Part shown: in pieces, positions 3,848 through 50,309 of the stretch
Position numbering within the stretch: position 1 is the stretch's first letter
Layout: each line of letters starts with the position of its first letter
NCBI GenBank assembly: GCA_964651655.1
Contig: CAZYVS010000002.1
Coordinates: forward strand, 29,471 to 93,470
From: an uncultured Candidatus Saccharibacteria bacterium
GTDB lineage: Bacteria; Patescibacteriota; Minisyncoccia; Phycocordibacterales; Zambryskibacteraceae
Reading direction: 5' to 3'
DNA: 64,000 nucleotides
The notes under the pieces: model-generated
The model's database searches: none
What the model saw: the letters and a program-made list of their open reading frames with translations, nothing else
Told to the model about the DNA's origin: nothing
Translations under genes and position numbers: made by a program

Positions 3848-4013
3848 GTGGTTTCTGGGCATTCTACCACACAGGTCAATTCTCCCCTATTCTTTTATTT
3901 ATCCAAAAGGCCGGTCCACCATTTGAAAGTAAAGGTCATTAAAAGATAAGCCGGTAAATAAATGGGTATTAAAATGAAAAACAAAATTATTCGCAATGCT
4001 TTCATAAAAATTT

Positions 4014-4247
4014 TCATATAGATTGTCGAGTCGAGAACAATGCTAAAATCATTCGCCAAACATAGAGAGTGGGAATTTTCGCATAGGACCAGGTAACACT
4101 TAGTACGTCTTTTATGTAATTTATAGTATTTCTCCCCTGCTCTGAATTGGCCGCGTCAATAATAGACCAATTAAAAAAATATTTAAGGAGAGCTAGGGCG
4201 ATAACAACAAGTATCAACCAGCTGATAAAACCTTTACTTCTCGGCAT
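4014..4247 (-). CDS. Small hypothetical membrane protein
   Basis: 77-aa ORF with a hydrophobic N-terminus between the M23 peptidase gene and pyrB. Confidence 0.3.
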   Translation of the reverse strand: MPRSKGFISWLILVVIALALLKYFFNWSIIDAANSEQGRNTINYIKDVLSVTWSYAKIPTLYVWRMILALFSTRQSI

Positions 4248-4283
4248 AGTTATATTTTACCTCTCGACAAAGCTCGAGGCAAG

Positions 4284-5567
4284 TTAGAGAAGTGGCAGGT
4301 AGGCAAGAGGATCGAGATATGCGTCCCGGCCTTTTGCAATCGGAACAAAAACTTGCTTGCATCCGATGCTCGTCGTGAATTGTCTAATCTCCACACCTTG
4401 CGAGGCAAGAAGTCCAACATGAAGGTGCGGACCTTTAGAATATCCCGAACCATATGCGCCCGGTACTCCACCCGAATAGCCAATGATTTGTTTCGTTGTC
4501 ACCCTTTGGCCCTTTTGCACGAGCGAGGCGGAGAGATGGGCATAGATACTTGAAAGACCATTATCGTGTTTGACAAGTATCCAGCGTCCATACGAATAAC
4601 ATCCTCGCTGGTCGTCCGTATTGCCGGTACCTTCAACCACTCCGGAGAGCACAGAACGGATAGGAGTACCCATAGAAGCCCTTAAATCCAGACCGTTATG
4701 GAAACAGTCGGCGCCGCCATAAATGTTGCAATCCGACCTACCAAAACGTCCCGTAATAAAGACCTGATCCAAGGGCCAAGCAAGAATCCCCCGTTTGGGT
4801 TCCGGGAAAAGCGAAGGGTCAAGTGTGATACGCAATTCCTGTTCCAGTCTATATAGATCGGTTTCCGATTCTTTCTGCCGCGCCATGTTTTCTTGAATAA
4901 GCTTTTGATAAGCCGCTTCTTTATTTTTGGTCGCGGCCAGAAGCTTTTCTTTCGCTTTCTGATTCTCTTCCACAACCGATTTTTGGCCGCTCAACTGCCC
5001 GCGCAAACTCACTTGTTCTTCTTTAACTTTTTCTTTCTCCGCTTTTTCCTGATTGAGAATTCTGCGAGTTTCGCGCAGAGCGGAAATTTCTTCTTCCAAA
5101 CGAGTATTCAGACCGGCGAGTTGACTCCCGTCTCTCCAAATATCCGAGAGTTTGACGGAAGCCAGTAGTTGAAGTATCAATGGACGAGCGTCATATTCGG
5201 ACAAGGCCAAAATGGTGTCGGCAATGGCGGTTCGATATGTGATAATTTGTTGTTCTTTTTCGCTCATAGAATTCTCAAGCGAACGGATATTCAAATCGGT
5301 GGAAGTAATTTTCGATTGGGTAATGCTGATATCCTTGGCCAATTTCTTTTTGGTGGCGTCAAGCGATTTGACCGCGCTGCCGAGGGTCTGGCTCTCTTTA
5401 TTAATTTCATCCAGCTCGGACTGAAGCTTCTTTTGTTCTTCAACAAGCACTTCCCTATTTCTTCGAACTTTATCTATTTGTTGTTCTAATTCACTCGGAT
5501 TGGCGGCATTTAGAACAAACGGTATGATTAAAAAAATAATAAAAATGCTGATAAATCCCCCGTTCAT
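4284..5567 (-). CDS. M23-family peptidase with N-terminal coiled coil (EnvC-like murein hydrolase activator)
   Basis: Signal/TM segment, a long coiled coil, and a C-terminal LytM/M23 motif GPHLHVGL. Confidence 0.8.
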   Translation of the reverse strand: MNGGFISIFIIFLIIPFVLNAANPSELEQQIDKVRRNREVLVEEQKKLQSELDEINKESQTLGSAVKSLDATKKKLAKDISITQSKITSTDLNIRSLENSMSEKEQQIITYRTAIADTILALSEYDARPLILQLLASVKLSDIWRDGSQLAGLNTRLEEEISALRETRRILNQEKAEKEKVKEEQVSLRGQLSGQKSVVEENQKAKEKLLAATKNKEAAYQKLIQENMARQKESETDLYRLEQELRITLDPSLFPEPKRGILAWPLDQVFITGRFGRSDCNIYGGADCFHNGLDLRASMGTPIRSVLSGVVEGTGNTDDQRGCYSYGRWILVKHDNGLSSIYAHLSASLVQKGQRVTTKQIIGYSGGVPGAYGSGYSKGPHLHVGLLASQGVEIRQFTTSIGCKQVFVPIAKGRDAYLDPLAYLPLL

Positions 5568-9782: not shown

Positions 9783-11599
9783 TATGGTTTCTGGCCGGCA
9801 ATAAAGACATTGTACCAGATTGCCAACACCAAAAGGAGATAGATTTTCCTCGAATTATCATCGCGGCCGGAGAGATGATGATTGATAAGATTATTTATAT
9901 ACGGGATATTCATATGTTTTTGAATATATGGATTTTCCAGAATGGTATTATAAATGTCTTTGTTATTACCGGTAAACCAATCTCTGACCGGCGTCGGGAA
10001 ACCGAGTTTCTTCCTCCGACGCACCGACTTTGGCAATATTTGTTTGAACGCCTCACGCAAGAGATATTTGGTAACCCCGCGTTTCCATTTAAATCTATCT
10101 GGAAAACTTGAAACCAGGCGCGCCACTTCGATATCCAGAAATGGCACTCTCAATTCAAGCGAATGCGCCATGGTCATTTTGTCCGCTTTAGCCAAAATAT
10201 CTCCCACAAGCCAAGTGTGAATATCAATGTACTGCATCTTGGTAGAATCGCTGAAATATGGCGCTCTGGCGTAGATATCACCGATAGAAAATTTTTTCTC
10301 TAACTTTTCTTTCCAAAGAAATTTAACTTCAGCGTTACTAAAAATAGAAGCGTTGCCGATATACCAGTCTTCAAGTTTCTGACTTGCTCTGGTGGCATAA
10401 TTTTTACCTCTAAAATTAAAAGGTAAATTGCTAATAAATTTCAAAATAATATTGGGTATCCAAGAGATCCATCGACGGGCAAATGGCTCCAGATAAATAT
10501 TGTAACCGCCAAAGAGTTCGTCAGCACCTTCGCCGGAGAGCACCACTTTGACATGTTTGGCCGCTTCTCGAGCCAAAAAATACAATCCGAGAGCTGAAGG
10601 ATCGGCTACAGGCTCATCAAAGTGCCATATCGCCTTGGGTAGATTGACAAAATATTCTTGCGCGCCAATAATAATTTCACGATGGTCGGTATTAAGCCAG
10701 TTGACGGTTTCTAACGCTTCCCTACCCTCGCTTAGAGATTCAAAACCAACGGTAAAAGTTTTAATTTTTTGTCCCGATTTTGTTCTCAAAAGTGTCGTAA
10801 CGATGCTCGAATCTATGCCGCCTGAAAGAAAGGCGCCGACGGGCACATCGGCAATCATATGGTGGGAAACGGAATCCTCCATCGTCTCAAAAATTTTTTT
10901 CTTAGTCTCTTTTTCATTCAATAAATCATTCGGCTGAAATTCAAATTTCCAATATCGTTTTATATCCATCTCGCCGGTCTTGGCGTTTATTTGCATCCAG
11001 TGAGCCGGCGGGAGTTTAAAAATGTTTTTGAAGAAAGTTTCTTCCAAAGGATTATATTGAAACGAAAGATAGTTAAAAATCGCCGCGTCATTTGCTTCCG
11101 GCCTGAAATCAGGCAAGGCAATAAAACTTTTTATTTCTGAAGAGAAAGCGGTGACTTGATTTCCTTTTTTCCAATAATATAGCGGTTTGATGCCAAAGAA
11201 ATCTCGCGCGATAAAAATCTTCTTATCTCTGGTATCGTAGATAGAGAAAGCAAACATACCGCGCAGATGCGGCAAAACCTCTTCTCCCCACTTTAGAAAT
11301 CCGGCTAAAATTACTTCGGTATCGCTATCAGTTTTAAACTTGTAATCGCTCAATGCACTTTTTATCTCCCTGTAATTATAAATTTCTCCATTGAAAATAA
11401 TCACCCACCGGCCATCACTGGAGACAATTGGCTGCCGGCCTCCGGCCAGATCAATGATGGAGAGTCGTCTCATTCCTAAAGCGACATAGTCATCGGAAAA
11501 AAATCCTGCATCATCCGGTCCGCGATGAAAAATGGCCTCGGTCATGTTTTGAATGCGGTCTCTTTCTTTCGGTTTGATTATTCCCGCTATGCCACACAT
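9782..11599 (-). CDS. asnB: Asparagine synthetase (glutamine-hydrolysing) family amidotransferase
   Basis: N-terminal MCGIAGI nucleophile and SGGIDSS PP-loop. Embedded in the peptidoglycan operon. Confidence 0.85.
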   Translation of the reverse strand: MCGIAGIIKPKERDRIQNMTEAIFHRGPDDAGFFSDDYVALGMRRLSIIDLAGGRQPIVSSDGRWVIIFNGEIYNYREIKSALSDYKFKTDSDTEVILAGFLKWGEEVLPHLRGMFAFSIYDTRDKKIFIARDFFGIKPLYYWKKGNQVTAFSSEIKSFIALPDFRPEANDAAIFNYLSFQYNPLEETFFKNIFKLPPAHWMQINAKTGEMDIKRYWKFEFQPNDLLNEKETKKKIFETMEDSVSHHMIADVPVGAFLSGGIDSSIVTTLLRTKSGQKIKTFTVGFESLSEGREALETVNWLNTDHREIIIGAQEYFVNLPKAIWHFDEPVADPSALGLYFLAREAAKHVKVVLSGEGADELFGGYNIYLEPFARRWISWIPNIILKFISNLPFNFRGKNYATRASQKLEDWYIGNASIFSNAEVKFLWKEKLEKKFSIGDIYARAPYFSDSTKMQYIDIHTWLVGDILAKADKMTMAHSLELRVPFLDIEVARLVSSFPDRFKWKRGVTKYLLREAFKQILPKSVRRRKKLGFPTPVRDWFTGNNKDIYNTILENPYIQKHMNIPYINNLINHHLSGRDDNSRKIYLLLVLAIWYNVFIAGQKP

Positions 11600-22637: not shown

Positions 22638-22820
22638 CTACTCGAGTGGATCTTTGCTGGTCTCGACGGCTTCGTTGACATAGTCTAGCTCTGCTTGATT
22701 CTCACCGGATGAACCGCGAGATTCAGCCTGTCCCCGCTCGACATCGCGACCAGCCTGTTCATTGCTCGGAGGGCCAAATATGTCACCAAAAAACTCACCA
22801 AAGAACGATTTGCCGCCCAT
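22638..22820 (-). CDS. Small hypothetical acidic protein (60 aa)
   Basis: MGGKSFFGEFFGDIFG.... SD AGGAGGTGA lies 8 nt before the ATG. The 5'UTR/promoter is near-identical to that of the DUF397-like gene. Confidence 0.45.
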   Translation of the reverse strand: MGGKSFFGEFFGDIFGPPSNEQAGRDVERGQAESRGSSGENQAELDYVNEAVETSKDPLE

Positions 22821-22911: not shown

Positions 22912-22949
22912 ATACGTTAATGTAATGCGGTCGCATTAAAGTAACGTAT
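22912..22949. promoter_or_regulatory. 38-bp palindromic operator-like element, copy A
   Basis: ATACGTTAATGTAATGCG-GT-CGCATTAAAGTAACGTAT. Related to the copies at 34594-34631 and 35227-35264. Confidence 0.5.
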
Positions 22950-22994
22950 GTCTATAAACACTATGTTTGTGTTATAGTAGCAACGTTATTGACA

Positions 22995-23067
22995 GGGCTC
23001 ATAGTAAAGTGGTATTACACGGCATTCGCATTGCCGAGTCCCGGGTTCAATCCCCGGTGAGTCCACC
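22995..23067 (+). tRNA. tRNA-Ala (anticodon CGC)
   Basis: Manual fold: acceptor GGGCTCA/TGAGTCC with G3:U70, D stem GTAA/TTAC, anticodon stem CGGCA/TGCCG, loop TTCGCAT, T arm CCGGG-TTCAATC-CCCGG, discriminator A. Confidence 0.85.
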
Positions 23068-23114
23068 GACAGAACCGTCGATGATAAAATGTTCTCCAAA
23101 GCGCATTAAGAACA

Positions 23115-23978
23115 TTATAATCCCAACTTCTTTAATTCTTCAACAAATTTATACGCCTCTTTGGAAAGTTTTTCCGGAATCTGCACGGCGATGCGAATAT
23201 AAAGATCGCCGCGACCTCTGGCGCTAGTGCCATGAGGCACGCCCCGGCCTTTCACCCGCAGAATACTGCCGTGCTTGGTACCGGCCGAAATCTTTAGAGT
23301 AATTTCTCCGTCAAGAGTATGAATGACTTTTTCCGCGCCGAGAAGCGCTTCGGTCAATTTGACATCCAAATCCATTATCAAATTGTATCCTTCCTTGCGC
23401 AGATAGGGATGTTTCCTGACATGCACTTTGACATAAAGATCGCCGGGCACACCGCCTTCAAGAATCTCGCCTTGACCGTTCAGACGGATCATTTGACCAT
23501 CATCAATGCCGGGCGGCACACCGATTGATACTTCTTTTTGTTTGACAAATTTTGAATTGATCACTACCTTTCTCTCCGCGCCGAAAATTGATTCTTGGAA
23601 AGAAAGTTCAATATCCACCGCAATGTCGCGTCCGCGCCTAACTCTGCGTCCACCAAAGATGCTTGAGAGTATATCTCCCAAGTCTCCTGTATCAAAACCG
23701 GCAGAGTTGAAACCGGAGAAATCAAAACCGAAACCAGATGGGTCGAATCCTGCTTGTCCCGAGCCTGTCGAAGGGCCCGCCCCGAACGTATCATATTGAG
23801 CGCGCTTCTTTTTATCCGAGAGCACGGCGTAGGCCTCGCTCGCCTCTTTAAACTTTGCTTCGTTACCGCCGGATTTGTCCGGATGATGAACATGCGCCAG
23901 TTTGCGGAAGGCTTTTTTTATTTCCTCCTCGCTCGCGTTCTTATTGACCCCTAATATTTTATAGTAATCTTTACTCAT
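23115..23978 (-). CDS. dnaJ: DnaJ-family co-chaperone (J domain plus G/F region, no zinc finger; CbpA-like)
   Basis: [32 protein letters not shown] domain, then a Gly/Phe-rich linker. Confidence 0.8.
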
Positions 23979-25879
23979 TATTTAGTTTCAGCGTCTTTGA
24001 TATCTGGATTTTCCGGCGGTTTTTGTTGTTGATCGTCAGTTGTTTGTTGTTTATTAAGATATTCTCCGATTTTTTGTATTTCTGTCGAAAGAGCTTCGGT
24101 GGCAGACTTGATCGAATCAATTGTACCACTCTCTTTTTCTTTCTTGAGCCCCGTTATTTTCTCGTTGATCAGAGTCTTGATATCGTCCGGCACATTGGCG
24201 TTGTCTTTCAGAGATTTCTCGGCGGTATAGATGAGTTGTTCTGCCATATTTTTCGCATCAACCAAATCTTTTTTTTTCTGATCTTCCGCGGCGTTGGCTT
24301 CCGCGTCCTTTTGCATCTTTTCAATTTCGCCCTTCGATAGACCGGAGCTGGCTTCTATTCTGATGGATTGTTCTTTGCCTGTAGTTTTATCTTTCGCCTT
24401 CACATTCAAGATACCATTGGCGTCAACGTCAAAGGTCACTTCTATCTGCGGCATACCGCGCGGCGCGGGCGGTATGCCATCCAGAATGAATCGGCCAAGC
24501 GATTTGTTGTCGGCGGCCATGGCTCGTTCGCCTTGGACAATATGAATTTCCACAGAAGTTTGACTGTCGGCCGCGGTTGAAAATATCTGCGATTTCGCCG
24601 AAGGAATGGTGGTATTTTTCTCAATCAACTTGGTGGCCACTCCACCCATGGTTTCAATACCAAGCGAAAGCGGAATGACATCAAGCAAAAGCACGTCCTT
24701 AACATCACCGGCCAAAATTCCTCCTTGAATGGCGGCGCCGAGAGCCACCACTTCATCCGGGTTAATAGACTTGTTTGGTTCTTTGCCAAAAAATTTCTTA
24801 ACTGATTCCACTATCGCCGGCATGCGCGTCTGACCTCCCACCAAAATCACTTCATGCAAATCGCCAACTTTAAAAGGAGACGCTCCCATAGCGCGCTTGG
24901 TAATTTCCATCGCTCGGCTTAGAAATTCATTAGAAAGTTCTTCAAGCTTGGCTCTGGAAAGTTTCAAAAGCAGATGTCTGGGGCCGGATGCATCTGAGGT
25001 AATAAAAGGTATGTTAATTTCAGTTTCTGTCGCCGTGGAGAGCTCGATCTTGGCTTTCTCCGCGGCCTCATCGAGTCTTTGGAGCGCCAAGGCATCCGTC
25101 CTAACGTCAATGCCGGACTCCTTTTTAAATTCTTCCGCGATATAATTGAGAACTTTTTGATCTATATCTTTGCCTCCCAAATGCGAATCGCCATCGGTTG
25201 ACTTTACTTCAACCACATCATCCCCCACTTCAAGGATTGAGATATCAAAGGTGCCGCCGCCAAAGTCAAAGACGGCAATTTTTTCATTCTTCTTTTTATT
25301 AAAACCGTAAGCCAGAGCGGCGGCGGTCGGCTCATTGATAATGCGCTTAACATCCAAGCCGGCAATCTGACCGGCATCTTTGGTGGCCTGACGTTGAGAG
25401 TCGTTAAAGTAAGCCGGCACGGTAATAATGGCTTCCGTAATTTTTTCGCCCAACTTGGTTTCGGCATCTGTTTTCAATTTTTGAAGAATCATGGCGGAAA
25501 TTTCTTCGGGACGATAATCCTTATCAGACATCTTCACCAACACTCCGCCGGTAACGCCGGCCTTGACTTCAAAGGGCACGGTAGCTTTATCTTTTTGAAC
25601 CGCCGGGTCGGAGAAAGTGTGGCCTATAAATCGTTTAATGCCAAAAATCGTGTTTTTAGGATTAGTGACGGCCTGACGCTTGGCTAAAAGCCCCACTAGA
25701 CGATCGCCTGTTTTAGACACCGCAACAATGGAAGGTGTGGTACGCGCCCCTTCGGCATTTTCTATAATTCTCGGCTGGCCCGCTTCCATCACCGCTACCG
25801 CGGAGTTTGTAGTGCCAAGATCAATACCAATTATTTTTGCCATATATTTATGTAAATTAATTTGTAATAAACGCCCCAA
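23978..25879 (-). CDS. dnaK: Hsp70 chaperone DnaK
   Basis: [18 protein letters not shown]; full-length Hsp70. Confidence 0.95.
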
Positions 25880-26387
25880 CTTTCACTTTCGCCGGACGAA
25901 CTACTTTACCATTCAATTTATACCCTTTCTGTAAAACTTCCAAGACTTTATGATCCGTCTCGTCCGTATCTACGGGAATAGCGGCTAACGCCTCGTGTTC
26001 ATGTGGACTGAAAGTTTCATTTAGAGAATCTATCTCCTCCAGACCATTGGCCTTAAGCACCGCGAATAACTGATTGTATAAAGGCTCAAAGTCTTTATGG
26101 CCCTGGCTCAAGGCTATATTAAAACTATCAAGCACGGGAATCAATGCCTCAATCAGAGAGAGCTCGGCAAATTTGATAAACTCCGATTTTGCTTCTTCAT
26201 CGCGTCGGCGGAAATTGGCAAAATCCGCTTGCGCTCTTTGCCAACCATCAAGATACTCTTTGGCCTTGGCCTCCGCCTCCTTCAGACGTTCTCGGAGTTT
26301 CTTTATTAATATTTGAGCTGATTCTTCCTCTACTACGGAATCATCTAAATCAGACTTATCTATTTCAATATTATCTTCTTCTTTCAT
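25857..26387 (-). CDS. grpE: Nucleotide exchange factor GrpE
   Basis: GrpE coiled-coil and dimerisation region ([16 protein letters not shown]). Confidence 0.85.
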
Positions 26388-26396
26388 ACCAATTAC

Positions 26397-26795
26397 TTAA
26401 CGCTTACTCCACTTTGGGGCCTTGCGGGCTTTCTTGAGGCCGAATTTTCTGCGTTCTTTGGCGCGAGGGTCGCGTTTTAGAAATCCTTTAATCTTAAGCT
26501 TGGCACGCAGATCGGGATCAAAAGAAACAAGCGCTCGACCCAGACCATGCTTCAAGGCTTCAGCTTGCGAAGAAATACCCCCACCATTAAGTCTGGCCGT
26601 TACCTGGAACTTGTTTTCCGTGTTATCAAAAATAGATAAAACGGTTCTTTGGAGCATCGGTGTAGGAAAATATTTCTCCAAGTCTTTGCCATTTACAGAG
26701 ATGGAAACTTTTGAAGCGGGAGTCATACGTACTCTGGCCACAGAGGTCTTTCGTCTGCCAACCGCTTCGGTATATTTTTCTTTTTTTTCCATCAT
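26397..26795 (-). CDS. rpsI: Ribosomal protein S9
   Basis: GGGISSQAEALKHGLGRAL; C-terminal ...KARKAPKWSKR. Confidence 0.9.
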   Translation of the reverse strand: MMEKKEKYTEAVGRRKTSVARVRMTPASKVSISVNGKDLEKYFPTPMLQRTVLSIFDNTENKFQVTARLNGGGISSQAEALKHGLGRALVSFDPDLRAKLKIKGFLKRDPRAKERRKFGLKKARKAPKWSKR

Positions 26796-26796
26796 A

Positions 26797-26822
26797 TTAT
26801 TTATAGTGAGTTTGTCGAACTA
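26797..26822 (-). promoter_or_regulatory. Conserved intercistronic motif, copy b (rplM stop to rpsI start)
   Basis: Coding-strand TAGTTCGACAAACTCACTATAAATAAT-ATG. Confidence 0.6.
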
Positions 26823-27167
26823 GGCTTTTATGTTCAAATTCTTCATCATTTTGGCGCGTAATTTATTTTTCGGAAGCATACCGTATATTGCCCGACGCAA
26901 TACTTCTTGGGGCCCTTTCGTTTTGACTATATACTCTTGAGATCGTCTTTTGAGATTTCCTGGAAAACCGGAGTGACTGAAATAGCTTTTAGCTTTTAGC
27001 TTCTTAGCTTCTAGCTTCATGGATCCGGTATTCATAACTTCAACCAAGATATCTGGAATACGGTTTCTGGCGAAATCTGTTCTATTTTTACCCATCAGAA
27101 ACACGGCCGCTTCCGTTGCGACCCGGCCCGGCACTCTGCCTTTTGCGTCTATAATATGTTTTTTCAT
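26820..27167 (-). CDS. rplM: Ribosomal protein L13
   Basis: L13 family sequence. Confidence 0.9.
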   Translation of the reverse strand: MKKHIIDAKGRVPGRVATEAAVFLMGKNRTDFARNRIPDILVEVMNTGSMKLEAKKLKAKSYFSHSGFPGNLKRRSQEYIVKTKGPQEVLRRAIYGMLPKNKLRAKMMKNLNIKA

Positions 27168-27189
27168 TTATAGTGAGTTTATCGAACTA
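27166..27189 (-). promoter_or_regulatory. Conserved intercistronic motif, copy c (rplQ stop to rplM start; overlaps the ATG)
   Basis: Coding-strand TAGTTCGATAAACTCACTATAAATG. Confidence 0.6.
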
Positions 27190-27534
27190 TACAAATTCTA
27201 TAATCGCCATGGGACTGGCATCCGTCATCCGCGGTCCCATTTTAATGATACGAGTATAACCTCCGGTTCTATCTTTATACGCCACGGAGAGTTTCTCTGC
27301 AATCTTTTTTGCCGCCGCCGGGCCAATTCGACTTTCCAGAAGACGGCGAGAGGCGATAGTCTGCTTTTTACCCAAAGTAATAAGTTTCTCCATAAAAGGA
27401 CGAAGCGATTGGGCCTTGGGTTCTGTGGTTTTAATTTTATCCTTTAGAGTCAGCGAGCGAGCCAAAGATTTGAGCAAAGCATTTCTTTGATTTTTTTCAC
27501 GGCCAAATTTTCTATTAGCATTATGATGTCGCAT
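27187..27534 (-). CDS. rplQ: Ribosomal protein L17
   Basis: L17 family sequence. Confidence 0.9.
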   Translation of the reverse strand: MRHHNANRKFGREKNQRNALLKSLARSLTLKDKIKTTEPKAQSLRPFMEKLITLGKKQTIASRRLLESRIGPAAAKKIAEKLSVAYKDRTGGYTRIIKMGPRMTDASPMAIIEFV

Positions 27535-27544
27535 AATTTCCGAG

Positions 27545-28522
27545 TTATTTCAACGTAATGCCAAATTCTCCGAGCGCTTTCTTGATTTCTTGTATACCCT
27601 TGGCTCCAAGACCGTCAATATCAAGCAAATCTTTTTCTTTTTTGCGAGCCAAGCCTCCTACAGTGCGAATATTAGCCATAGAAAGCGCGCTTCGAGTACG
27701 AGAGGAAACGTCCAGAGATTCCACACGCGTCTTTAGAATTTCCGGGTCAACGGCCGATTTGACAACCGGGCCATGACTTTCGCGCACGCTCTTGTTTTCA
27801 GTCACGGGCTCGTCTTCTTTGAAACCGACAATGGCCTTGAGCTGATCTATCATAATGCCAATGGCGGCAGAGAGGGCGGCGGAAGGAGAAATGGTGCCGT
27901 CTGTTTCAATAAACATTTTCAGTTTATTGAAATCTGTTCTGTCTCCGACGCGCATGTTTTCAACTTCATAACTGGCTCGACGAATGGGAGTAAAAATGCC
28001 GTCGAGAGCCATAGTCCCGATATCAACGCGGGATTTTTCAATCATTTCTTTCGGCATAAAGCCGAGGCCCTTCTCCGCTTTAATTTCCATATCAAGCACG
28101 GTATTTTTCCCGATGATTGTGGCAATCACTTCATCGGGAGTGAGAATCTCCACCTGTCCGGGAACTTCCAAGTCGGAAGCCCGAACCACCTTCTCGCCTG
28201 CCTGCGTGGCCAAACCCTTAACCTTTAGGTAAAGAATTTGAGGTTCATCAGTGGTAAAACGCATACGAATTCTTTTAAGATTAAGCAGGATAGTAACCAC
28301 ATCTTCCTTTACCCCCTCTAAAACGGTAAACTCATGGTTAACACCGGCAATCTTGACCGAGGTAATGGCCACCCCGGGCAAAGAAGAGAGTATGATGCGG
28401 CGAAGACTGTTACCAAGGGTGTGTCCATATCCGGGATACAAACCTTCAATTTCAAAGACACCGCTTTCTCCTTCTTCAGATATTACTTTTGGTTGTGAGG
28501 GTAAAAGTATTGTGTAATCAGC
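27545..28522 (-). CDS. rpoA: DNA-directed RNA polymerase alpha subunit
   Basis: MADYTILLPSQPKVI...GNSLRRILLSS-type N-terminal domain plus alpha-CTD. Confidence 0.9.
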   Translation of the reverse strand, partial: ADYTILLPSQPKVISEEGESGVFEIEGLYPGYGHTLGNSLRRIILSSLPGVAITSVKIAGVNHEFTVLEGVKEDVVTILLNLKRIRMRFTTDEPQILYLKVKGLATQAGEKVVRASDLEVPGQVEILTPDEVIATIIGKNTVLDMEIKAEKGLGFMPKEMIEKSRVDIGTMALDGIFTPIRRASYEVENMRVGDRTDFNKLKMFIETDGTISPSAALSAAIGIMIDQLKAIVGFKEDEPVTENKSVRESHGPVVKSAVDPEILKTRVESLDVSSRTRSALSMANIRTVGGLARKKEKDLLDIDGLGAKGIQEIKKALGEFGITLK

Positions 28523-28557
28523 CATAAAAATATAAAAATTAAGGTTAAATTGTAACA

Positions 28558-29163
28558 CTATCTGTTATAGAATTCAATCACCACCCCGAGATCAAAGATA
28601 TTTTCCTTTGCTGCATAGACCGCTTGGCCCAAGACGGTGACTTGTCTCTTCTCCGGATCCGCTTTCAACCACACAGGCATAGCGATAGTTTTCATTCTCT
28701 CTTCAACCTCTCCAAAAAGAGGACTTGAAGCGGAACCGGCGCGCAGACCGACAACATCGCCTTTTGAGAGAAGGATAGAGGGTATGGTGACACGGGCATT
28801 ATTGACTATGATATGTCCATGGCTGGCGGCTTGACGGGCCTGCGCGCGTGTTTTGGCCAAACCGGAGCGATAGACGATATTATCCAACCGGCTCTCCAGA
28901 ATACTAAAAAGTTTTTGAATCGGATCTGAAGCGCGTAAAGCTTTGGCGACGTAGGTTCTAAATTGAGCTTCGCTTAAGCCATAGCTGTAACGAGTTTTTT
29001 GTTTTTCTATCAGTTCCTGGCCGAATTCACTTTTTGGCTTTCGGTGACCTTTATCATTTTTCTCCTTGCGCGCCAATGAAAGCACATACTTCGGGGTTTG
29101 AGTTTTTTCAAAAACTGGAGCCCCCAGACGCCTGGCTATTTTATATTTTGGTCCTATTCGCAT
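28558..29163 (-). CDS. rpsD: Ribosomal protein S4
   Basis: S4 family sequence. Confidence 0.9.
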   Translation of the reverse strand: MRIGPKYKIARRLGAPVFEKTQTPKYVLSLARKEKNDKGHRKPKSEFGQELIEKQKTRYSYGLSEAQFRTYVAKALRASDPIQKLFSILESRLDNIVYRSGLAKTRAQARQAASHGHIIVNNARVTIPSILLSKGDVVGLRAGSASSPLFGEVEERMKTIAMPVWLKADPEKRQVTVLGQAVYAAKENIFDLGVVIEFYNR

Positions 29164-29168
29164 AAAAA

Positions 29169-29195
29169 TTATTTATAGTGAGCATGGTCGAACTA
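29169..29195 (-). promoter_or_regulatory. Conserved intercistronic motif, copy d (rpsK stop to rpsD start)
   Basis: Coding-strand TAGTTCGACCATGCTCACTATAAATAATTTTT-ATG. Confidence 0.6.
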
Positions 29196-29633
29196 TGTTC
29201 TCCTTGGTTTGGGCGGTTTTGGTCCGTTGTGAGGCACGGCGGTTTTATCTTGAATAGCGGTTAAATTTATACCTTTGGAAATAAAGCCTCTGATAGCCGA
29301 TTCTCGGCCGGAACCAACGCCTTTAATGGCCACCTTGACTTCTTTGACGCCCAAGGCCTGCGCTTTAAGCGCTAAAGTCTCGCCTACCTTGGCAGCCGCA
29401 AACGGCGTACCTTTCTTGGCTCCTTTGAAGCCAAGACTGCCGCTTGAAGACCAGGCTAAAGTATTACCTTTGTTATCAGCCAACATTAGTTTAGTATTGT
29501 TATATGTAGACTCAACATAAAGAACACCCGAGTCGATACGCCTCTTACTTGATTTCTGTTCCTTAGCCGCCTCGGTGTCTGCCGATTTTTCTTCTATTTT
29601 GTCTCTGATTGTAGCTATTTTTTTCTTTCCCAT
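29193..29633 (-). CDS. rpsK: Ribosomal protein S11
   Basis: S11 C-terminal signature; start at MGKKKIATIR. Confidence 0.9.
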   Translation of the reverse strand: MGKKKIATIRDKIEEKSADTEAAKEQKSSKRRIDSGVLYVESTYNNTKLMLADNKGNTLAWSSSGSLGFKGAKKGTPFAAAKVGETLALKAQALGVKEVKVAIKGVGSGRESAIRGFISKGINLTAIQDKTAVPHNGPKPPKPRRT

Positions 29634-29640
29634 TGGATAA

Positions 29641-30018
29641 TTATTTCTTCTCGGCCACCTTGCGTCCCGTACCCATGGTTTTCCTCGCTCCTCGTTTTGT
29701 TCGGGCATTGGATTTGGTGCGCTGACCGTATACCGGAAGATTGCGCATATGGCGCAAGCCCTTATAAGACCTTATCTCTTTCAGTCGTTTAATATTGCCG
29801 GCCACTTCTCTCTTCAAATCACCCTCCAGGGTTAGGCCTTCAATAGCGGAACGAATTTTATTTTCCTCTTCTATGCTGACTTCTTTGGGCTTTTTCCCAA
29901 AAGGCACGCCCGCTTTTTCAAGAATAATTCTGGCTCTTGGACGGCCAATGCCAAAAAGCGTAGTCAGACCGATTTCAAGACGCTTTTCTTCCGGAAGAGT
30001 GATGCCGAGTATTCTCAT
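29641..30018 (-). CDS. rpsM: Ribosomal protein S13
   Basis: MRILGITLPEEKRLEIGLTTLFGIG. Confidence 0.9.
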   Translation of the reverse strand: MRILGITLPEEKRLEIGLTTLFGIGRPRARIILEKAGVPFGKKPKEVSIEEENKIRSAIEGLTLEGDLKREVAGNIKRLKEIRSYKGLRHMRNLPVYGQRTKSNARTKRGARKTMGTGRKVAEKK

Positions 30019-30135
30019 TTAACCTTGTCTTTGTTTATGTCGCGGGTTGGCTTTGCAAGTGACGTAAACATAGCCCCTTCTGCGGACTATCTGGCACTTA
30101 GCGCATAATTTTCTGACCGCCGCCTTGACTTTCAT
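30019..30135 (-). CDS. rpmJ: Ribosomal protein L36 (38 aa; not in the ORF track)
   Basis: Manual translation gives [38 protein letters not shown]. Confidence 0.8.
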
Positions 30136-30201
30136 AACAAGACTGCATTCTAACTCAACTCTGTTTTTCTGTCTACCCCACCAGACCCCGTCTGATTGGG
30201 T

Positions 30202-30423
30202 TTAGAGTCGTTTGATGATGCGGGCCTTGCCGCCATAAGGCTCCAGTTCTAAAAGCACTTTGTCCCCCACCAAAACTCTGATGCGATGTAGGCGCATTTT
30301 ACCAGAGAGATAAGAGAGAATTTCCTCCTCCGTTTGGTCAAGTTTAACGCGAAACATAATATTGGGTAGAGATTCAATCACAATTCCCGTTCTTTCCAAA
30401 TCAGAGGATTTACTTTGCGGCAT
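30202..30423 (-). CDS. infA: Translation initiation factor IF-1
   Basis: S1-like IF-1 sequence. Confidence 0.9.
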   Translation of the reverse strand: MPQSKSSDLERTGIVIESLPNIMFRVKLDQTEEEILSYLSGKMRLHRIRVLVGDKVLLELEPYGGKARIIKRL

Positions 30424-30426
30424 ATA

Positions 30427-31755
30427 TCATTTGACGGGAAGTTTCTTCAAGAAGATATCGGCGCCATTCTCGGGAAAAGAACTTTTCCAAAATGGTCTGA
30501 TGGTGGCGGTCGCCTTAGCAACAGTCGGATAATTATTAAGAATGGAAGGAAGATCCTGTTTACTTCTCCCCAATAAATCGGCTTTTAGGGCCACCTCGTC
30601 CACATTCCATTCTATCGTCGTCTCACCCCTAACGGAAAAACTGATTTTGTTTGAAGACAGCGGATTAATTGACGCGTTGTTTGTCAAAGCAAATTCAAGC
30701 GAGTCGAGTTTATCGATATTCAGCGATTCACCGGCCGCTAAAGTGACTTTGTCAACAACCAATTCACGAGACAGATCGCTTCTTTTGAACATAACTCCGG
30801 CCAAGTCAGCAGACATATTTATCATCACCCCTTCCCCGTTGGTTGGAACCGATTGAGGCAACTCTTTAAAAGTGACCGAGGAAAGAGACGGCAACAAGAT
30901 AAAGTCTTCCGGCACTTGAGCTTTGGCTTCGGAAATTAATCCTTCTTTGAGCGCGGTTTCAAGTTGCTCTCTGACTCGCGCCCCATCTTCACTTTTGATT
31001 ATCTTTTCCGTACCGGAAAAGCCGCCGGACATTTCGGTCTTAGAACGAGCATACACGGAGGCAAACAGCGAAGTGCCCTTAAGCCCGGGAAGAGTAAAAT
31101 CGGCAAACCCGATATTGAATCCTTGGCCGGGACGTTCGGCATAGACCACCACTTCCAGAGCGCCCAATTTTTCTTCACCGTTGACCAGTTTCTTGCCGGG
31201 AATAACAATGGCATCCGGGACTTGATAAATTTTACCGTCCGGGGTTTCAAAACGCGTCGTGGCCCTCAACCTCTGTTCAACGATACTGGCATTATAGACA
31301 ACAATGGTGCCGCTAGCTTTTCTTTCTACTTCCTGTTCTCCGGATGTGGACACTTCTTGACCTTTCTCCATAGAAAGTTTAACAATGCTAAAAAGAAGTC
31401 CGCTCTCGCCCTCCTTGCGCGCCTCATACAAGCCACCGTCAAAAGACACTGCTTGAGATTTAGGCACATAGGCCAACGTGGCGCCGCCAAATACGGAAAG
31501 TATAGGAAAAATGAGTATCAGGACGGCGATGCCGATTGCTATCCACTTGCGTCTGCCCCGGCTATTGGCGGAACTACCGCCGTTTGGCGGAAAATTGAAA
31601 CTATTATCAGGCGATGAATCATTAAACGAATAATTTTCTTTTGAAGTTTGGGGCATTTCGCGACGCTCGATTCTGCGACGTCCCTCGGGAATAGGAATGT
31701 CCCGAATGCTTCTTTTTCTCTCTGGCACGACTATGTCTTCAATATGTTTCGGCAT
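30427..31755 (-). CDS. Hypothetical membrane-anchored protein (442 aa) at the position usually held by secY/adk/map
   Basis: Basic N-terminus, one TM helix, and a large extracytoplasmic domain with no recognisable motifs. Confidence 0.5.
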   Translation of the reverse strand: MPKHIEDIVVPERKRSIRDIPIPEGRRRIERREMPQTSKENYSFNDSSPDNSFNFPPNGGSSANSRGRRKWIAIGIAVLILIFPILSVFGGATLAYVPKSQAVSFDGGLYEARKEGESGLLFSIVKLSMEKGQEVSTSGEQEVERKASGTIVVYNASIVEQRLRATTRFETPDGKIYQVPDAIVIPGKKLVNGEEKLGALEVVVYAERPGQGFNIGFADFTLPGLKGTSLFASVYARSKTEMSGGFSGTEKIIKSEDGARVREQLETALKEGLISEAKAQVPEDFILLPSLSSVTFKELPQSVPTNGEGVMINMSADLAGVMFKRSDLSRELVVDKVTLAAGESLNIDKLDSLEFALTNNASINPLSSNKISFSVRGETTIEWNVDEVALKADLLGRSKQDLPSILNNYPTVAKATATIRPFWKSSFPENGADIFLKKLPVK

Positions 31756-31770
31756 GTCAAAAATTATAAC

Positions 31771-31796
31771 TTATTTATAGTGAGCTTGTCGAATTA
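31771..31796 (-). promoter_or_regulatory. Conserved intercistronic motif, copy e (alaS stop to the hypothetical gene)
   Basis: Coding-strand TAATTCGACAAGCTCACTATAAATAA, then a second TTATAAT 7 nt before the ATG. Confidence 0.55.
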
Positions 31797-33068
31797 TTTT
31801 TTAAATTTACGCCTTCCACCGGAACGCGAGATAGTTTGGTGTTTGCTCATTTCTTTGTCAAAAGCGGCGCGGTCGATTTTTATGCCCTTCTCCCCGGCCA
31901 GCTCTTCAGTCAATTCTATCGGGAAACCATAACTTGTGAAGAGGATAAAAGGATCAACCCCCTTATCAAACTGTTTGAGGCCTGATTCCAAAGTTTTGCC
32001 GAATTTTTCAATTTCCGTTGAGATAATATCCGCTATCGCCGGATTAAAGACATAAAGTCCCTTATAACTTTCATGATTAGAAACGGCTTTTGCCAGAGAA
32101 TTTATTGTTTTTAGATCACCTCCTATTTTTCTAACATGAACATAAGCGCGGCGAAGAAGCCGTCGTAAAATGTAACCCCGGCCGGTATTTGACGGTAAAA
32201 CACCGTCGCTTAGCGCAAAGACCGATGTTCGTATATGGTCGGCGATAATTCGTTTAGATCGGGTGAGAACGGAATCAAAACCATCAAACACCGAAATAAG
32301 CGGCGCAAACAGATCGGTGTCAAAAATATTATTTTTATTTTGAAGCGCCATAGTTAAACGCTCCAGCCCGGCGCCCGTATCAACATTTTTTTGTGATAAT
32401 TTATTTGTAATTTTTCCGTCTTTCTTCTCATATTCCATAAAGACATCGTTCCAAACTTCTACTACTTTCTGTTCTTTATCGGCCCTTTCATATTCTTGTT
32501 TGGTTAAATTTCCCAAGCCTTCGAGAGTAACGTCATAAAACATTTCCGTGTCCGGTCCGCACGGTCCGCTTTCTCCCGCGCTCCACCAATTTGATTTGGC
32601 TCCCAAAAAAAAGATTCTGTTCTTCGGCATATACTTCTGCCAAATTTTAAAAGCTTCTTCATCTTTCGGGGCATTTTCATCTCCCTCAAACACAGTAACG
32701 TAGAGTCGTTTAGGATCCAGGCCAAATCCTTCCTCTTTGTTTGTCAATAATTCATAACTCCACTGAATTGCTTCTTCTTTAAAGTAATCACCTAGAGACC
32801 AGTTACCAAGCATCTCAAAAAAAGTATCGTGAGTATTATCACCGACTTCGTTAATATCTTGGGTGCGTACACACTTCTGAATATTTACCAAACGTCTGCC
32901 TTGCGGATGTTTCTTACCCATAAGATATGGCACTAGAGGTTGCATCCCGGCGGTGGTGAATAGAACTGAAGAGTCATTCTCCGGCACGAGCGAGGCCGAC
33001 GGGATAACTGTGTGTCCCCGGTTCTCGAAAAAAGTCAGGAATCGCCGCCGAATTTCTTCAGATTGCAT
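31794..33068 (-). CDS. alaS: Alanyl-tRNA synthetase, N-terminal catalytic plus tRNA-recognition domains only (no editing or C-Ala domains)
   Basis: EIRRRFLTFFENRGHTVIPSASLVPENDSSVLFTTAGM and ADHIRTSVFALSDGVLPSNTGRGYILRRLLRR align to AlaRS residues 1 to about 455. The ORF ends there. Confidence 0.8.
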   Translation of the reverse strand: MQSEEIRRRFLTFFENRGHTVIPSASLVPENDSSVLFTTAGMQPLVPYLMGKKHPQGRRLVNIQKCVRTQDINEVGDNTHDTFFEMLGNWSLGDYFKEEAIQWSYELLTNKEEGFGLDPKRLYVTVFEGDENAPKDEEAFKIWQKYMPKNRIFFLGAKSNWWSAGESGPCGPDTEMFYDVTLEGLGNLTKQEYERADKEQKVVEVWNDVFMEYEKKDGKITNKLSQKNVDTGAGLERLTMALQNKNNIFDTDLFAPLISVFDGFDSVLTRSKRIIADHIRTSVFALSDGVLPSNTGRGYILRRLLRRAYVHVRKIGGDLKTINSLAKAVSNHESYKGLYVFNPAIADIISTEIEKFGKTLESGLKQFDKGVDPFILFTSYGFPIELTEELAGEKGIKIDRAAFDKEMSKHQTISRSGGRRKFKK

Positions 33069-33086
33069 TAGATGAATATAACACAA

Positions 33087-33668
33087 TTAAACGAGAGTCT
33101 TAAGCACTTTGAAATCTTCTTTAAGAGTCTCGAGAAGATGCTGGTTATAAATGGCCGCCGCCGGATGATAGAAAGGCGTAAATTTAAAATCCTTCGCCTG
33201 AAATACTTTGCCATGTAGAGCGCTGATGGATGAAAGCTCATTTTCAAGACCGTAACGATTCATGACGTATTGCATGGAAAACCGGCCAAGCGTGGCTATA
33301 ACTTTCGGTTTAATGATTCCAATTTGACGATCCAGAAACGGGGCGTAAATCTCTATCTCGTCCGGATAGGGATCACGGTTTCCGGGCGGGCGGTCTTTGA
33401 CAACATTGGTTACGTAGACGTTTTTTCTTTCTATACCGACGTGAGCCAGAAGCAGATCAAGCACCTTCCCCGCCCGCCCGCAAAACGGCCTGCCGGTTTT
33501 GGCCTCATTTTCTCCCGGTGCCTCGCCGATAAACATCACTATCGCCGAATGATTGCCTTCCCCTATTACCGGGAAATATTTATTTTGCACCCGCTCGGCA
33601 TAAAGCGGCGAAGCCTTGAGGGCGACAACCTCATTCTTAATTTTTTTTAATTCCTCATCACAATTCAT
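33087..33668 (-). CDS. Uracil-DNA glycosylase, family 4
   Basis: GEAPGENEAKTGRPFCGRAGKVL motif. Confidence 0.8.
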   Translation of the reverse strand: MNCDEELKKIKNEVVALKASPLYAERVQNKYFPVIGEGNHSAIVMFIGEAPGENEAKTGRPFCGRAGKVLDLLLAHVGIERKNVYVTNVVKDRPPGNRDPYPDEIEIYAPFLDRQIGIIKPKVIATLGRFSMQYVMNRYGLENELSSISALHGKVFQAKDFKFTPFYHPAAAIYNQHLLETLKEDFKVLKTLV

Positions 33669-34497
33669 TTATTTCGTTCATGACCGGTTCAATATTAAAA
33701 TTCTTACCAAGAAATTCATTCAATAATTTAGGATGCTTCTTAACATCCGAACAGAGAACAATCCTCTTCTCAAGAAGCGTCTTCTTATCGGCAGTCGAAA
33801 GCGAAACCAGGCAAGTCACGGGATGAAGCGCTTCGTTTTCAATCATCTCTTGCAAACCGGCATTTTCCGGATAATTCCATCCTATCATGGTTAAATTATT
33901 ACAAAGACCATAATGAATGGCCGTACTTGAAAATTTGGTATTGGTGACAAGCCAGCAATCGGTAACGTGCCTATTAGAACCGCCATAATCAAAAACGTTG
34001 CCGCGTAAATCGTCAAACCTTGCCTTGATATAAAGAACCACTTTCAAATCGGACTTTGTACCCAGACCATTATGAAATTTTGCTTCAATCATAATAAGTT
34101 CTTTTTCATTGTAGGCCACCACGTCTACTTCGTGCGCCACACATTCGCCAAGCACGGTTTGACGAGTCTGACACTTATAACCTTTGGCTTCAAGCACTCT
34201 GGCGATAAAATCTTCAAACGGAAAGCCTGAAGGTCCGAGATCCATCACCGCCCGACGAAGAGAATAACTTCTGGCAATCGGCTTGCTTATTTTTTGCAGA
34301 ATGGAAAAGGCGTGTCTGTAGATATCATTGGTTGTCATGTCGTCATGGAGTTCCGGCAAAATATGAGACATCACCTGCTCTACAGCTTCCTCCGTTGCGC
34401 CGGCATGAAAAAGAGAGTATCGGAGTTTTTCTTCATCAAAAATTTCCCGCTCTCCATTTGCCTTGAGAATTGTTACTTGTTTGGTTAGTTGCACCAT
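33658..34497 (-). CDS. ATP-cone domain fused to a PD-(D/E)xK (Mrr-like) restriction-endonuclease-fold domain
   Basis: The N-terminus ILKANGEREIFDEEKLRYSL is ATP-cone-like. The central FEDFIARVLEAKGY...VDVVAY...IMIEAKF has a D...ExK core. TATAAT lies 6 nt before the ATG. Confidence 0.55.
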   Translation of the reverse strand: MVQLTKQVTILKANGEREIFDEEKLRYSLFHAGATEEAVEQVMSHILPELHDDMTTNDIYRHAFSILQKISKPIARSYSLRRAVMDLGPSGFPFEDFIARVLEAKGYKCQTRQTVLGECVAHEVDVVAYNEKELIMIEAKFHNGLGTKSDLKVVLYIKARFDDLRGNVFDYGGSNRHVTDCWLVTNTKFSSTAIHYGLCNNLTMIGWNYPENAGLQEMIENEALHPVTCLVSLSTADKKTLLEKRIVLCSDVKKHPKLLNEFLGKNFNIEPVMNEINEL

Positions 34498-34593
34498 TCT
34501 AGTATTATACCTCACGACAATATCTCATTCATCACTCCGCCACTGAAACAGATTTTTTCACACACTCACCCTCGTTCATAGTTAAAATATCAT

Positions 34594-34631
34594 ATACGTT
34601 ACTTTTATGCGACCGCATTATTTTAACGTAT
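34594..34631. promoter_or_regulatory. 38-bp palindromic operator-like element, copy B (upstream of the ATP-cone nuclease gene)
   Basis: ATACGTTACTTTTATGCG-AC-CGCATTATTTTAACGTAT. Confidence 0.5.
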
Positions 34632-34661
34632 ATGTAAATAGAAATGGCATAGGAATTTTAA

Positions 34662-35228
34662 TTAAATTAATCCGAACTCTTCTCGCAGATGTTTATCGTT
34701 TTCCAGTTCATCAACAATCATGTATAAAAGATACTTACCTATTCTGAAATCAGTTTTGAGTAGAGTAATAATGTCTTCACAATCATAAGGATATATCCAA
34801 ACACTGTTTTGAAGACGTCGAATACCGGTCTGTCTAAAGAGTATGGTTAAATCATCTCTTGCCTTCTTTTTCTTTTCTGGAATATCAAAAATAATCACTC
34901 TCCATTTCTTATCCCATCTTTTGGGTTTTTGCAATTGGAAATCAGCGAATTGCCAACGGCGCAAGAGACTTTCCCCTTTTAAAGTCAGTTGATATCTCTT
35001 GCCGTCGTAGAAAAGTAATCCACGCTTAACAAGTTTACTGGCCGAGGAACCAATATACTCTTTTTGTCTCTTGTTTGGAAGAATGCCAAGCTTGGCAAGC
35101 GCTCCTATGACATTTGGAGCAACCAGAGCCACACTCAACATGCCCGCGACTGCCACAGTTTGCAAAATTACGTGTTGCAAATTTTTACGCTTTGATTTCT
35201 TACGGCTTTTATTCTCTAATTTACCCAT
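34662..35228 (-). CDS. wHTH plus Cas2/VapD-like fold protein (PaaX-like architecture); putative regulator
   Basis: The C-terminal half WRVIIFDIPEKKKKARDDLTILFRQTGIRRLQNSVWIYP resembles Cas2 or the PaaX C-terminus. The N-terminal half is wHTH-like. The gene is flanked by palindromic elements. Confidence 0.5.
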   Translation of the reverse strand: MGKLENKSRKKSKRKNLQHVILQTVAVAGMLSVALVAPNVIGALAKLGILPNKRQKEYIGSSASKLVKRGLLFYDGKRYQLTLKGESLLRRWQFADFQLQKPKRWDKKWRVIIFDIPEKKKKARDDLTILFRQTGIRRLQNSVWIYPYDCEDIITLLKTDFRIGKYLLYMIVDELENDKHLREEFGLI

Positions 35229-35264
35229 ACGTCACTTTTATGCGACCGCTTTATTATAACGTAT
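35227..35264. promoter_or_regulatory. 38-bp palindromic operator-like element, copy C (abuts the regulator's start codon and contains TATAAT)
   Basis: ATACGTCACTTTTATGCG-AC-CGCTTTATTATAACGTAT. Confidence 0.5.
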
Positions 35265-50115: not shown

Positions 50116-50237
50116 GTTATCTTATCAGATTTAAATTATTACCCCTATTTATTAATTTACAATGATATTATTTTTTTATACATAATAATAACGCTATAGC
50201 TTTTTTATTATGTATATTGGATATGTATCTTATTAAA

Positions 50238-50279
50238 TTTTATAAAAAAGAAGGCGGCGCGATCGGAAGATCGCGCCGC
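50238..50279 (-). terminator. Rho-independent terminator after the hypothetical gene 50310-50909
   Basis: GCGGCGCGATC-gga-GATCGCGCCGC followed on the minus strand by TTCTTTTTTATAAAATTT. Confidence 0.65.
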
Positions 50280-50309
50280 TACATTCGCAACCAACGGGGA
50301 GGAATGAGC

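Follow-up and report, generated by a model that had tools for sequence, protein, structure and literature searches.

What reads a 38-bp palindrome that occurs three times in a 64,000-nucleotide stretch of an uncultured Candidatus Saccharibacteria genome (GTDB family Zambryskibacteraceae; contig CAZYVS010000002.1; hereafter the window), and why do two of its copies enclose one small gene? To our knowledge, almost nothing is known about transcription control in the candidate phyla radiation (CPR, or Patescibacteria). A sequence-only reading of the window had placed the element at 22912-22949, 34594-34631 and 35227-35264 and proposed that a 188-aa protein with a helix-turn-helix (HTH) binds it as a dimer, at its own operator and at two other promoters, which would join a nuclease gene and a 60-aa "islet" gene in one regulon. 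Our analysis supports the core of this proposal, a dimeric HTH regulator with its own operator, on the basis of gene bracketing, protein-DNA covariation and protein fold; the shared regulon found no support. We consider it fairly probable that a minimal PaaX-family protein binds the 38-bp palindromes as a dimer, represses its own gene and has a small number of further sites between genes.

All three copies were found at the positions given, with one to two mismatches to the degenerate consensus first drawn for them in the 22912 copy, none in the 34594 copy and three in the 35227 copy. The chance expectation for the 38-bp element was 0 in 100 shuffles, and a relaxed pattern with three mismatches allowed detected no further copy of this type in the 64 kb. 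The element has the layout ATACGTTA-N5-ATGCG-GT-CGCAT-N5-TAACGTAT, and the three copies represent the GCGGTCGC type. Symmetry is confined to the outer blocks of 8 nt and the inner blocks of 5 nt; neither the N5 blocks nor the central GT show it, yet they are kept between the copies, and the element therefore has an orientation. The 34594 and 35227 copies are oriented with the minus-strand genes, while the 22912 copy is flipped and directed toward a tRNA-Ala gene on the plus strand.

The gene for the 188-aa protein (34662-35228, minus strand) sits exactly between the 35227 copy on its start side and the 34594 copy on its stop side. As the sequence-only reading had noted, the 5' copy (35227-35264, minus strand), a putative auto-operator, runs into the start codon (..ACGTATG), its last two bases being the AT of that codon, and it embeds a TATAAT on the strand of the gene. 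This hexamer (35253-35258, minus strand) occupies element positions 7-12 in the left arm and is a predicted -10 box. The 3' copy (34594-34631, minus strand) begins 30 nt past the stop codon, and no T-tract comes after it.

To see how general this arrangement is, we compared about 90 related loci in total, including 80 loci from a protein-anchored metagenome scan that encode proteins with 54-88% identity to the window protein. In relatives at 78-85% identity, the gene order mnmA, 188-aa gene, ATP-cone nuclease gene, uracil-DNA glycosylase (UDG) gene and alaS was kept with both palindromes in place. We found the upstream palindrome in 71 of 78 loci and its downstream counterpart in 73 of 75, and 65 of 73 loci carried the pair; the figure for control windows was 8 of 195. 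In the loci at 54-88% identity the 5' copy runs into the start codon, and the start of the 3' copy ranges from -9 to +40 nt relative to the stop codon, reaching about 90 nt in distant lineages; some 3' copies share bases with that codon (TAATACGT, TGATACGT). Five distant members (36-44% identity) are bracketed as well, with wholly different outer arms (ATCCTATT..AATAGGAT, ACTTGTTTATAAA.., ACCTAGCTATTTT..) and similar cores (CGACCG, CTATAG or CGATCG). Furthermore, the gene downstream of the regulator is convergent in 37 of 65 loci, and the 3' copy trails the regulator's stop codon regardless of the identity or direction of that gene, indicating that the 3' copy belongs to the regulator gene.

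The sequence-only reading had described the protein as a winged helix-turn-helix (wHTH) half joined to a half resembling Cas2 or the C-terminal domain of PaaX, and had suggested profile searches and structure prediction as a check. In a Pfam search, residues 103-176 matched PaaX_M (PF20803), the middle domain of PaaX, with 65.6 bits against a cut-off of 24, and so did all 71 diverse family members examined. Cas2 profiles scored just under their cut-off on the window protein (21.2 versus 24.5 bits), and 51 of the 71 members matched Cas2. PaaX_C was matched neither by the window protein nor by the 71 members, and the chain ends at residue 188, just past the Cas2-like domain. Thus, the second half is Cas2-like, as had been said, and corresponds to the middle rather than the C-terminal domain of PaaX. 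Sequence profiles were less telling for the first half: the PF07848 N-terminal winged helix was reached by one of the 71 members, HTH_45 and PadR matches were weak, and TIGR02277 aligned with residues 57-159 at E = 2e-6, far under its cut-off.

The wHTH (residues ~17-95) is suggested mainly by the structure model. An earlier AlphaFold2 (AF2) model from a shallow alignment was poor (predicted local distance difference test score, pLDDT, 58), and the model used here came from a more diverse alignment (pLDDT 78). Three helices (3-31, 40-46 and 53-68) and a beta wing (72-81) precede a beta-alpha-beta-beta-alpha-beta domain (~103-176) in this model. Its best fold match in the PDB was E. coli PaaX (8A39; E = 3.6e-5 over 139 columns), followed by Rv0674 (3KFW) and then by many Cas2 and VapD structures, and a PDB sequence search gave a marginal match to Rv0674 only. 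An N-terminal hydrophobic stretch, considered as a membrane anchor, was set aside: its counterpart in the PaaX-type winged helix is the segment of helices 1 and 2, and the model, too, renders it helical. Together, these data indicate that the 188-aa protein is a truncated PaaX-type protein, with a winged helix and a Cas2-like middle domain, that lacks the C-terminal domain of PaaX. The FDIPE motif contains D115, which corresponds in position to the catalytic Asp of Cas2 and shows no variation down to 35% identity; the equivalent Asp is not conserved in Rv0674.

The family is large. A word-indexed search returned 1,849 matches, and 3,018 clusters at 50% identity were collected, 1,611 of them at E <= 1e-10; nearly all members are 185-195 aa long, and their source labels are Zambryskibacteria, Paceibacterota or Parcubacteria. 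No second paralogue was found in the 64-kb window. Literature searches for PaaX-like proteins in CPR bacteria, or for a wHTH-Cas2 protein with palindromes, returned no paper on the family or its sites.

Protein and palindrome are also linked by the way in which they change together. Across lineages, positions 2-4 and 35-37 (TAC/GTA) and C17/G22 are near-invariant, and pairs 5-8 and 14-16 vary. At each variable pair the two copies of one genome share the half-site state in 60 to 63 of 63 genomes, with states differing between genomes, and paralogues on one contig (loci L032 and L043) have the same outer arm and different cores. At pair 5/34, 46 lineages have G:C and 22 have A:T. The protein column with the highest mutual information with this pair is residue 58, where the recognition helix (53-68) starts: Y58 goes with G at position 5 in 45 of 46 cases, and I, V or S58 with A in 22 of 22. 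Both the pair and the residue change three times on a neighbour-joining tree. Where two proteins shared 75% identity or more, residue 121 (K or R, on helix a1 within the Cas2-like domain) had changed in 89% of the pairs with a symmetric change at core position 16/23, compared with 1% of the pairs with unchanged DNA. The window itself fits this rule, with a Y58 and K121 protein, a TACG arm and a GC..GC core.

Judged from the sequences, this pattern of covariation is the one that a trans-acting reader of base identity would leave. On this view the winged helix would read the outer arm, and the Cas2-like domain, placed at the dyad of the dimer, would read the core; because the covarying pairs are phylogenetically non-independent, we regard this as strong circumstantial evidence rather than proof. 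Very probably, the palindrome is thus the predicted binding site of the 188-aa protein itself.

An element with a promoter motif at a start codon could act as a DNA site or as an RNA hairpin. The latter, in which transcript hairpins serve as attenuator or terminator or as a site for the Cas2 domain, which resembles an RNA recognition motif (RRM), the 5' hairpin hiding the start codon and the 3' hairpin ending or stabilising the mRNA, is in our judgement improbable. In its favour, folding of the copies is predicted to yield -8 to -14 kcal/mol, the outer stem includes the start codon, palindromy is perfect from end to end in some 3' copies (L058, L060, L110), and there are RNases among the Cas2 and VapD relatives. 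Against these points stand several properties of the copies. A perfect TATAAT was found in the left arm of 36 of 59 5' copies versus 6 of 59 3' copies, so that transcription probably starts inside the 5' palindrome, near its centre, and just half of the palindrome would then be in the mRNA. Sense-strand mismatches of the G.U type barely exceeded those of the A.C type (70 versus 46 and 69 versus 58), many N5-block pairs are non-complementary, leaving these blocks largely unpaired, and 10 of 59 3' copies match better in flipped orientation. A T-tract or T-run follows 9 of 57 3' copies only, and no terminator-like site was called at the copies of the window. Moreover, solitary copies often stand after a terminator and before a promoter, and base identities, beyond mere pairing, shift jointly in both copies and follow protein residues. 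A terminator role of the copies was accordingly rejected, given that T-tracts are mostly missing and terminator calls absent, as was an RNA hairpin with a sense-strand wobble bias, since no such bias was seen. The site also overlaps the core promoter in more distant lineages, where the -10 box is found immediately past the palindrome or in its right arm. These features favour recognition of double-stranded DNA and autorepression by occlusion.

We therefore return to the autorepressor and propose how it may work. The data show that the sites exist, where they lie, that they are conserved and covary with the protein, and how the protein folds; that the protein binds them, whether it represses, and what the 3' copy does are inferred. 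The two winged helices of a dimer would read the outer TAC(G/A)TTA arms, about 30 bp apart, with the Cas2-like domains sitting on the dyad over the GC-N4-GC core. Binding at the 5' copy, which covers the -10 box, the likely transcription start and the start codon, would shut off the protein's own synthesis, as E. coli PaaX does at its promoter Px. The 3' copy, bound by the same protein, would most likely be a second operator; it could loop to the 5' copy or block transcription entering or leaving the gene, thereby insulating a self-controlled gene. A few further copies placed between a terminator and a housekeeping promoter, that of tRNA-Ala in the window, may form a small regulon, and paralogues with other core specificities may use palindrome types of their own, sometimes side by side.

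Several observations weigh against this model. Autorepression of the ordinary kind calls for no second site past the end of the gene, yet conservation is as high for the 3' copy as for the 5' copy, so that part of the biology is not explained by autorepression. Dimerisation alone would not require the invariant D115. The solitary sites have their edge at about -36 to -60, upstream of the core promoters rather than over them, and repression is therefore not obvious there. In addition, the covariation statistics are only partly corrected for shared ancestry, and AF2 confidence is low over the first 50 residues.

The conserved Asp and the precise bracketing raise another explanation, in which the unit is a selfish cassette or a device for DNA transactions. 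Here an active Cas2-type nuclease would be aimed by its winged helix at the palindromes, and the repeat-gene-repeat unit would be mobile or self-maintaining, in the manner of REP/RAYT elements (repetitive extragenic palindromes and their associated tyrosine transposases) or of the repeat duplication in CRISPR spacer integration, with solitary copies as targets or scars. Direct copies do bracket the gene precisely, sometimes with stop and start codons within them, and the profile matches to Cas2 and the invariance of the catalytic-position Asp fit as well. Paralogous cassettes occur within one genome, and same-type cassettes whose proteins are 91% identical were found beside different genes (encoding a metallo-beta-lactamase (MBL)-fold protein or MurB), so that the whole bracketed unit must have been relocated or duplicated. 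In contrast, the protein outconserves its neighbours, housekeeping genes included, between the window and locus L001 (85% identity versus 67% for MnmA, 59% for a DUF8128 protein and 54% for AlaRS), and the locus is syntenic across Zambryskibacteria. Copy number is low, at about one solitary site per 50-60 kb, and neither a transposase, nor Cas1, nor a CRISPR-like array is nearby (loci L001-L004 and window). The two copies also differ systematically, with the -10 box in the 5' one, fitting functional sites rather than fresh duplications. No relatives were found in the viral contigs of IMG/VR, for which reason a phage origin was also set aside. On balance we regard such a cassette as unlikely. 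The same low probability attaches to its more specific form, in which the Cas2-like domain reads the core and keeps an active Asp, giving a sequence-targeted nuclease or nickase in a self-propagating or self-guarding repeat-gene-repeat module; it is equally doubtful that the bracket arose in the way that CRISPR spacer integration duplicates a repeat.

Least probable of all is that the palindromes are sites of some other factor, or generic intergenic punctuation, with the PaaX-like gene merely a conserved target: sites do also lie upstream of many unrelated housekeeping genes, but the PaaX-like gene is their sole constant neighbour across lineages whose other neighbours differ, site variants follow specific residues of its product, and the ATP-cone/Mrr nuclease is restricted to the Zambryskibacteria lineage. 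A replication origin, terminus or fork trap was rejected because the window contains no GC-skew switch.

We next consider which other genes the sites might serve. The 188-aa gene has mnmA upstream and the ATP-cone and Mrr-type nuclease gene downstream. The sequence-only reading had put the 34594 copy in the promoter region of the nuclease gene, which does not hold: the nuclease has its own TATAAT (34504-34509), which is separated from the palindrome by about 85 nt and, six bases on, is followed by the ATG at 34497, and the copy follows the regulator's stop codon whatever lies downstream. The nuclease was also rejected as binding factor or regulated partner, being a neighbour in the Zambryskibacteria lineage only, with a leaderless promoter of its own and a variable distance to the palindrome. 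Its TATAAT-N6-ATG arrangement is kept in the window (34495-34509), L001 (~11333-11347) and L002 (~10673-10688), which suggests a leaderless mRNA, and a TATAAT-N6/7-ATG layout recurs at the SMC gene (L014) and at a distant PaaX-like gene (L110). Further downstream, the alanyl-tRNA synthetase reading frame (31794-33086, minus strand) encodes 430 aa, compared with 531 aa in L002 and 393 aa in L001, is far less conserved than the genes around it (54% against L001), and may represent a truncated or split AlaRS.

The solitary copy (22912-22949, plus strand) lies between two divergent genes. On one side is the 60-aa islet open reading frame (ORF; 22638-22820, minus strand), which has a strong Shine-Dalgarno sequence (AAAGGAGGTGA) and a near-consensus sigma70-like promoter at 22886-22857 (11 of 12 matches), and is therefore probably a real small gene; it had no family match. 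The palindrome is indeed upstream of this promoter, at about -62 to -99. On the other side, 46 nt away, is tRNA-Ala with anticodon CGC (22995-23067, plus strand), for which an extended -10 element, TGtTATAGT, is predicted at 22970-22978 (plus strand), placing the palindrome's edge at about -36. In locus L015 the same type of palindrome, the downstream sequence with the extended -10 element, and tRNA-Ala(cgc) are all conserved, while the divergent gene differs. The islet gene was thus rejected as a conserved target, and a regulon joining it with the nuclease gene is accordingly not supported. The interval that separates the solitary palindrome from tRNA-Ala contains an inverted repeat, CTATAAACAC..GTGTTATAG (22952-22978), which overlaps the predicted extended -10 element; the repeat is kept in two species, with the L015 repeat at the same position. 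The window contains three tRNA-Ala genes.

A wider search for the palindrome, which the sequence-only reading had suggested as well, was run on GTDB representative genomes with a strict pattern. It returned 22 stretches, all but one chance match in Zambryskibacteria-like metagenome-assembled genomes, with at most 5 copies per genome. Copies were few and intergenic, rather than widely dispersed outside promoters as a REP-like element would be. About 10 solitary sites were seen in the protein-anchored loci, often directly after an intrinsic terminator. Solitary copies stand upstream of tRNA-Ala(cgc) (window and L015), rpoB and the genes for S20, SMC, RNase Y, a sigma-like factor and DoxX, beside gltX and hisS, and ~0.8 kb ahead of a 16S gene. 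In the last case (L005), a 96-aa ORF lies between the palindrome at 2520-2557 and the 16S rRNA gene at 3326-4447. In AT-rich genomes, G-rich stretches (e.g. GGGGGAGGTGCAGGAGGGGGTGGGG) were noticed after solitary palindromes (L011 4841-4950, L019 2249-2290, L014 4409-4470); they gave no Rfam match at the gathering threshold.

Palindromes of the generic TAC..GTA form are more numerous than the GCGGTCGC type: 166 such 38-mers were counted in 821 kb, versus 0.2 in shuffles, and only 6 of the 166 lie inside long open frames, though these frames make up 86% of the sequence. With one of them, the window holds four palindromes in 64 kb. This fourth palindrome (50178-50215, no strand assigned), unreported in the sequence-only reading, has the same architecture but is of another type, ATACATAATAATAACGCTATAGCTTTTTTATTATGTAT, with 17 of 19 pairs matched, ACATAAT arms and a GCTATAGC core. 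It lies between the intrinsic terminator of a 199-aa gene (~50245-50280) and a gene for a 157-aa membrane protein. The same type flanks or lies near a paralogue in L068 and is also present in L013; as the window encodes no paralogue, a second one is probably encoded outside it, and 50178-50215 is presumed to be its site.

Palindromes of different types also abut one another. Two to four of them stand head to tail in an exact 36-bp register (once 37 bp), with a shared GTA|TAC junction, in L019 (2141-2248, plus 2286; three types), L006 (2405-2515), L011 (4767-4840), L012 (3776-3849), L013 (3013-3086), L016 (1143-1217) and L074 (1162-1235). It looks as if several paralogues dock side by side.

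A putative binding site that can be read directly from genomes offers a rare and testable entry to gene regulation in uncultured, ultra-small CPR bacteria. Sites located at tRNA, rRNA-proximal, rpoB, S20, SMC and RNase Y regions point to the growth machinery as what may be controlled. Matched variants of protein and site amount to a ready-made recognition code, with residues 58 and 121 indicated as specificity determinants, and the covariation would give a Cas2-like domain a DNA-reading role. A conserved site at the 3' end of a regulator's own gene is an unusual design, and our literature searches found no paper describing it. Were the nuclease or nickase version of the cassette true, the protein would be a free-living relative of the adaptation machinery, in organisms mostly without CRISPR.

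Known systems share single features with this one. Lrp/AsnC regulators combine an HTH with a ferredoxin-like oligomerisation domain and were weakly matched by the AF2 model in the fold search; their sites come in adjacent arrays, and they have no sequence relationship to the present protein, whose ferredoxin-like domain is of Cas2 type and whose sites are 38-bp palindromes. In REP/RAYT systems, too, a gene is flanked by palindromes that its product supposedly recognises, with more copies in intergenic regions. Different from these, no HUH/Y1 transposase is present here (profiles matched only PaaX_M, Cas2 and wHTH), copies are few, purifying selection on the protein is strong, and the 5' copy doubles as a promoter. 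The phage lambda CI gene is flanked by OR and OL, and cooperation by looping tightens its autoregulation. The gene described here likewise lies between two sets of its own putative operators; it has one 38-bp site per side, ~0.6 kb apart, looping is only proposed, and it is a chromosomal core gene rather than part of a prophage.

With Cas2 and VapD, the protein shares the ferredoxin-like beta-alpha-beta-beta-alpha-beta fold, an FDI(P)E motif with its Asp in beta1, and a conserved Q-SVW motif. Cas2 dimers lie on duplex DNA in Cas1-Cas2 complexes. In contrast to Cas2 and VapD, the domain is fused here to a winged helix and scores under the Cas2 family cut-offs, and, unlike Cas2, it has no cas1 or CRISPR array as a neighbour in L001-L004 and no repeat array in the window.

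The closest known system is PaaX. In E. coli its operator is TGATTC-N27-GAATCA, 39 bp long, and PaaX represses its own promoter Px by occlusion (PMC9493321). The protein described here differs in missing the C-terminal domain for the effector phenylacetyl-CoA (188 aa versus ~305 aa), in its invariant Cas2-type Asp, and in its neighbours, which include no paa genes and are instead mnmA, the ATP-cone nuclease, UDG, alaS and ribosomal genes. Its gene is bracketed by two putative operator copies, it has many paralogues, each with its own predicted specificity, and, within the material examined, this mini-PaaX family was seen only in Paceibacteria and CPR metagenomes. Like PaaX (8A39, TIGR02277), which is its best structural match, it has a predicted winged helix at the N-terminus, ahead of a Cas2-like middle domain. 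Its predicted site is similarly long, with widely spaced inverted repeats (38 bp here versus 39 bp in E. coli), and, judging from placement and covariation, would likewise be a repressor site that overlaps the regulator's own promoter.

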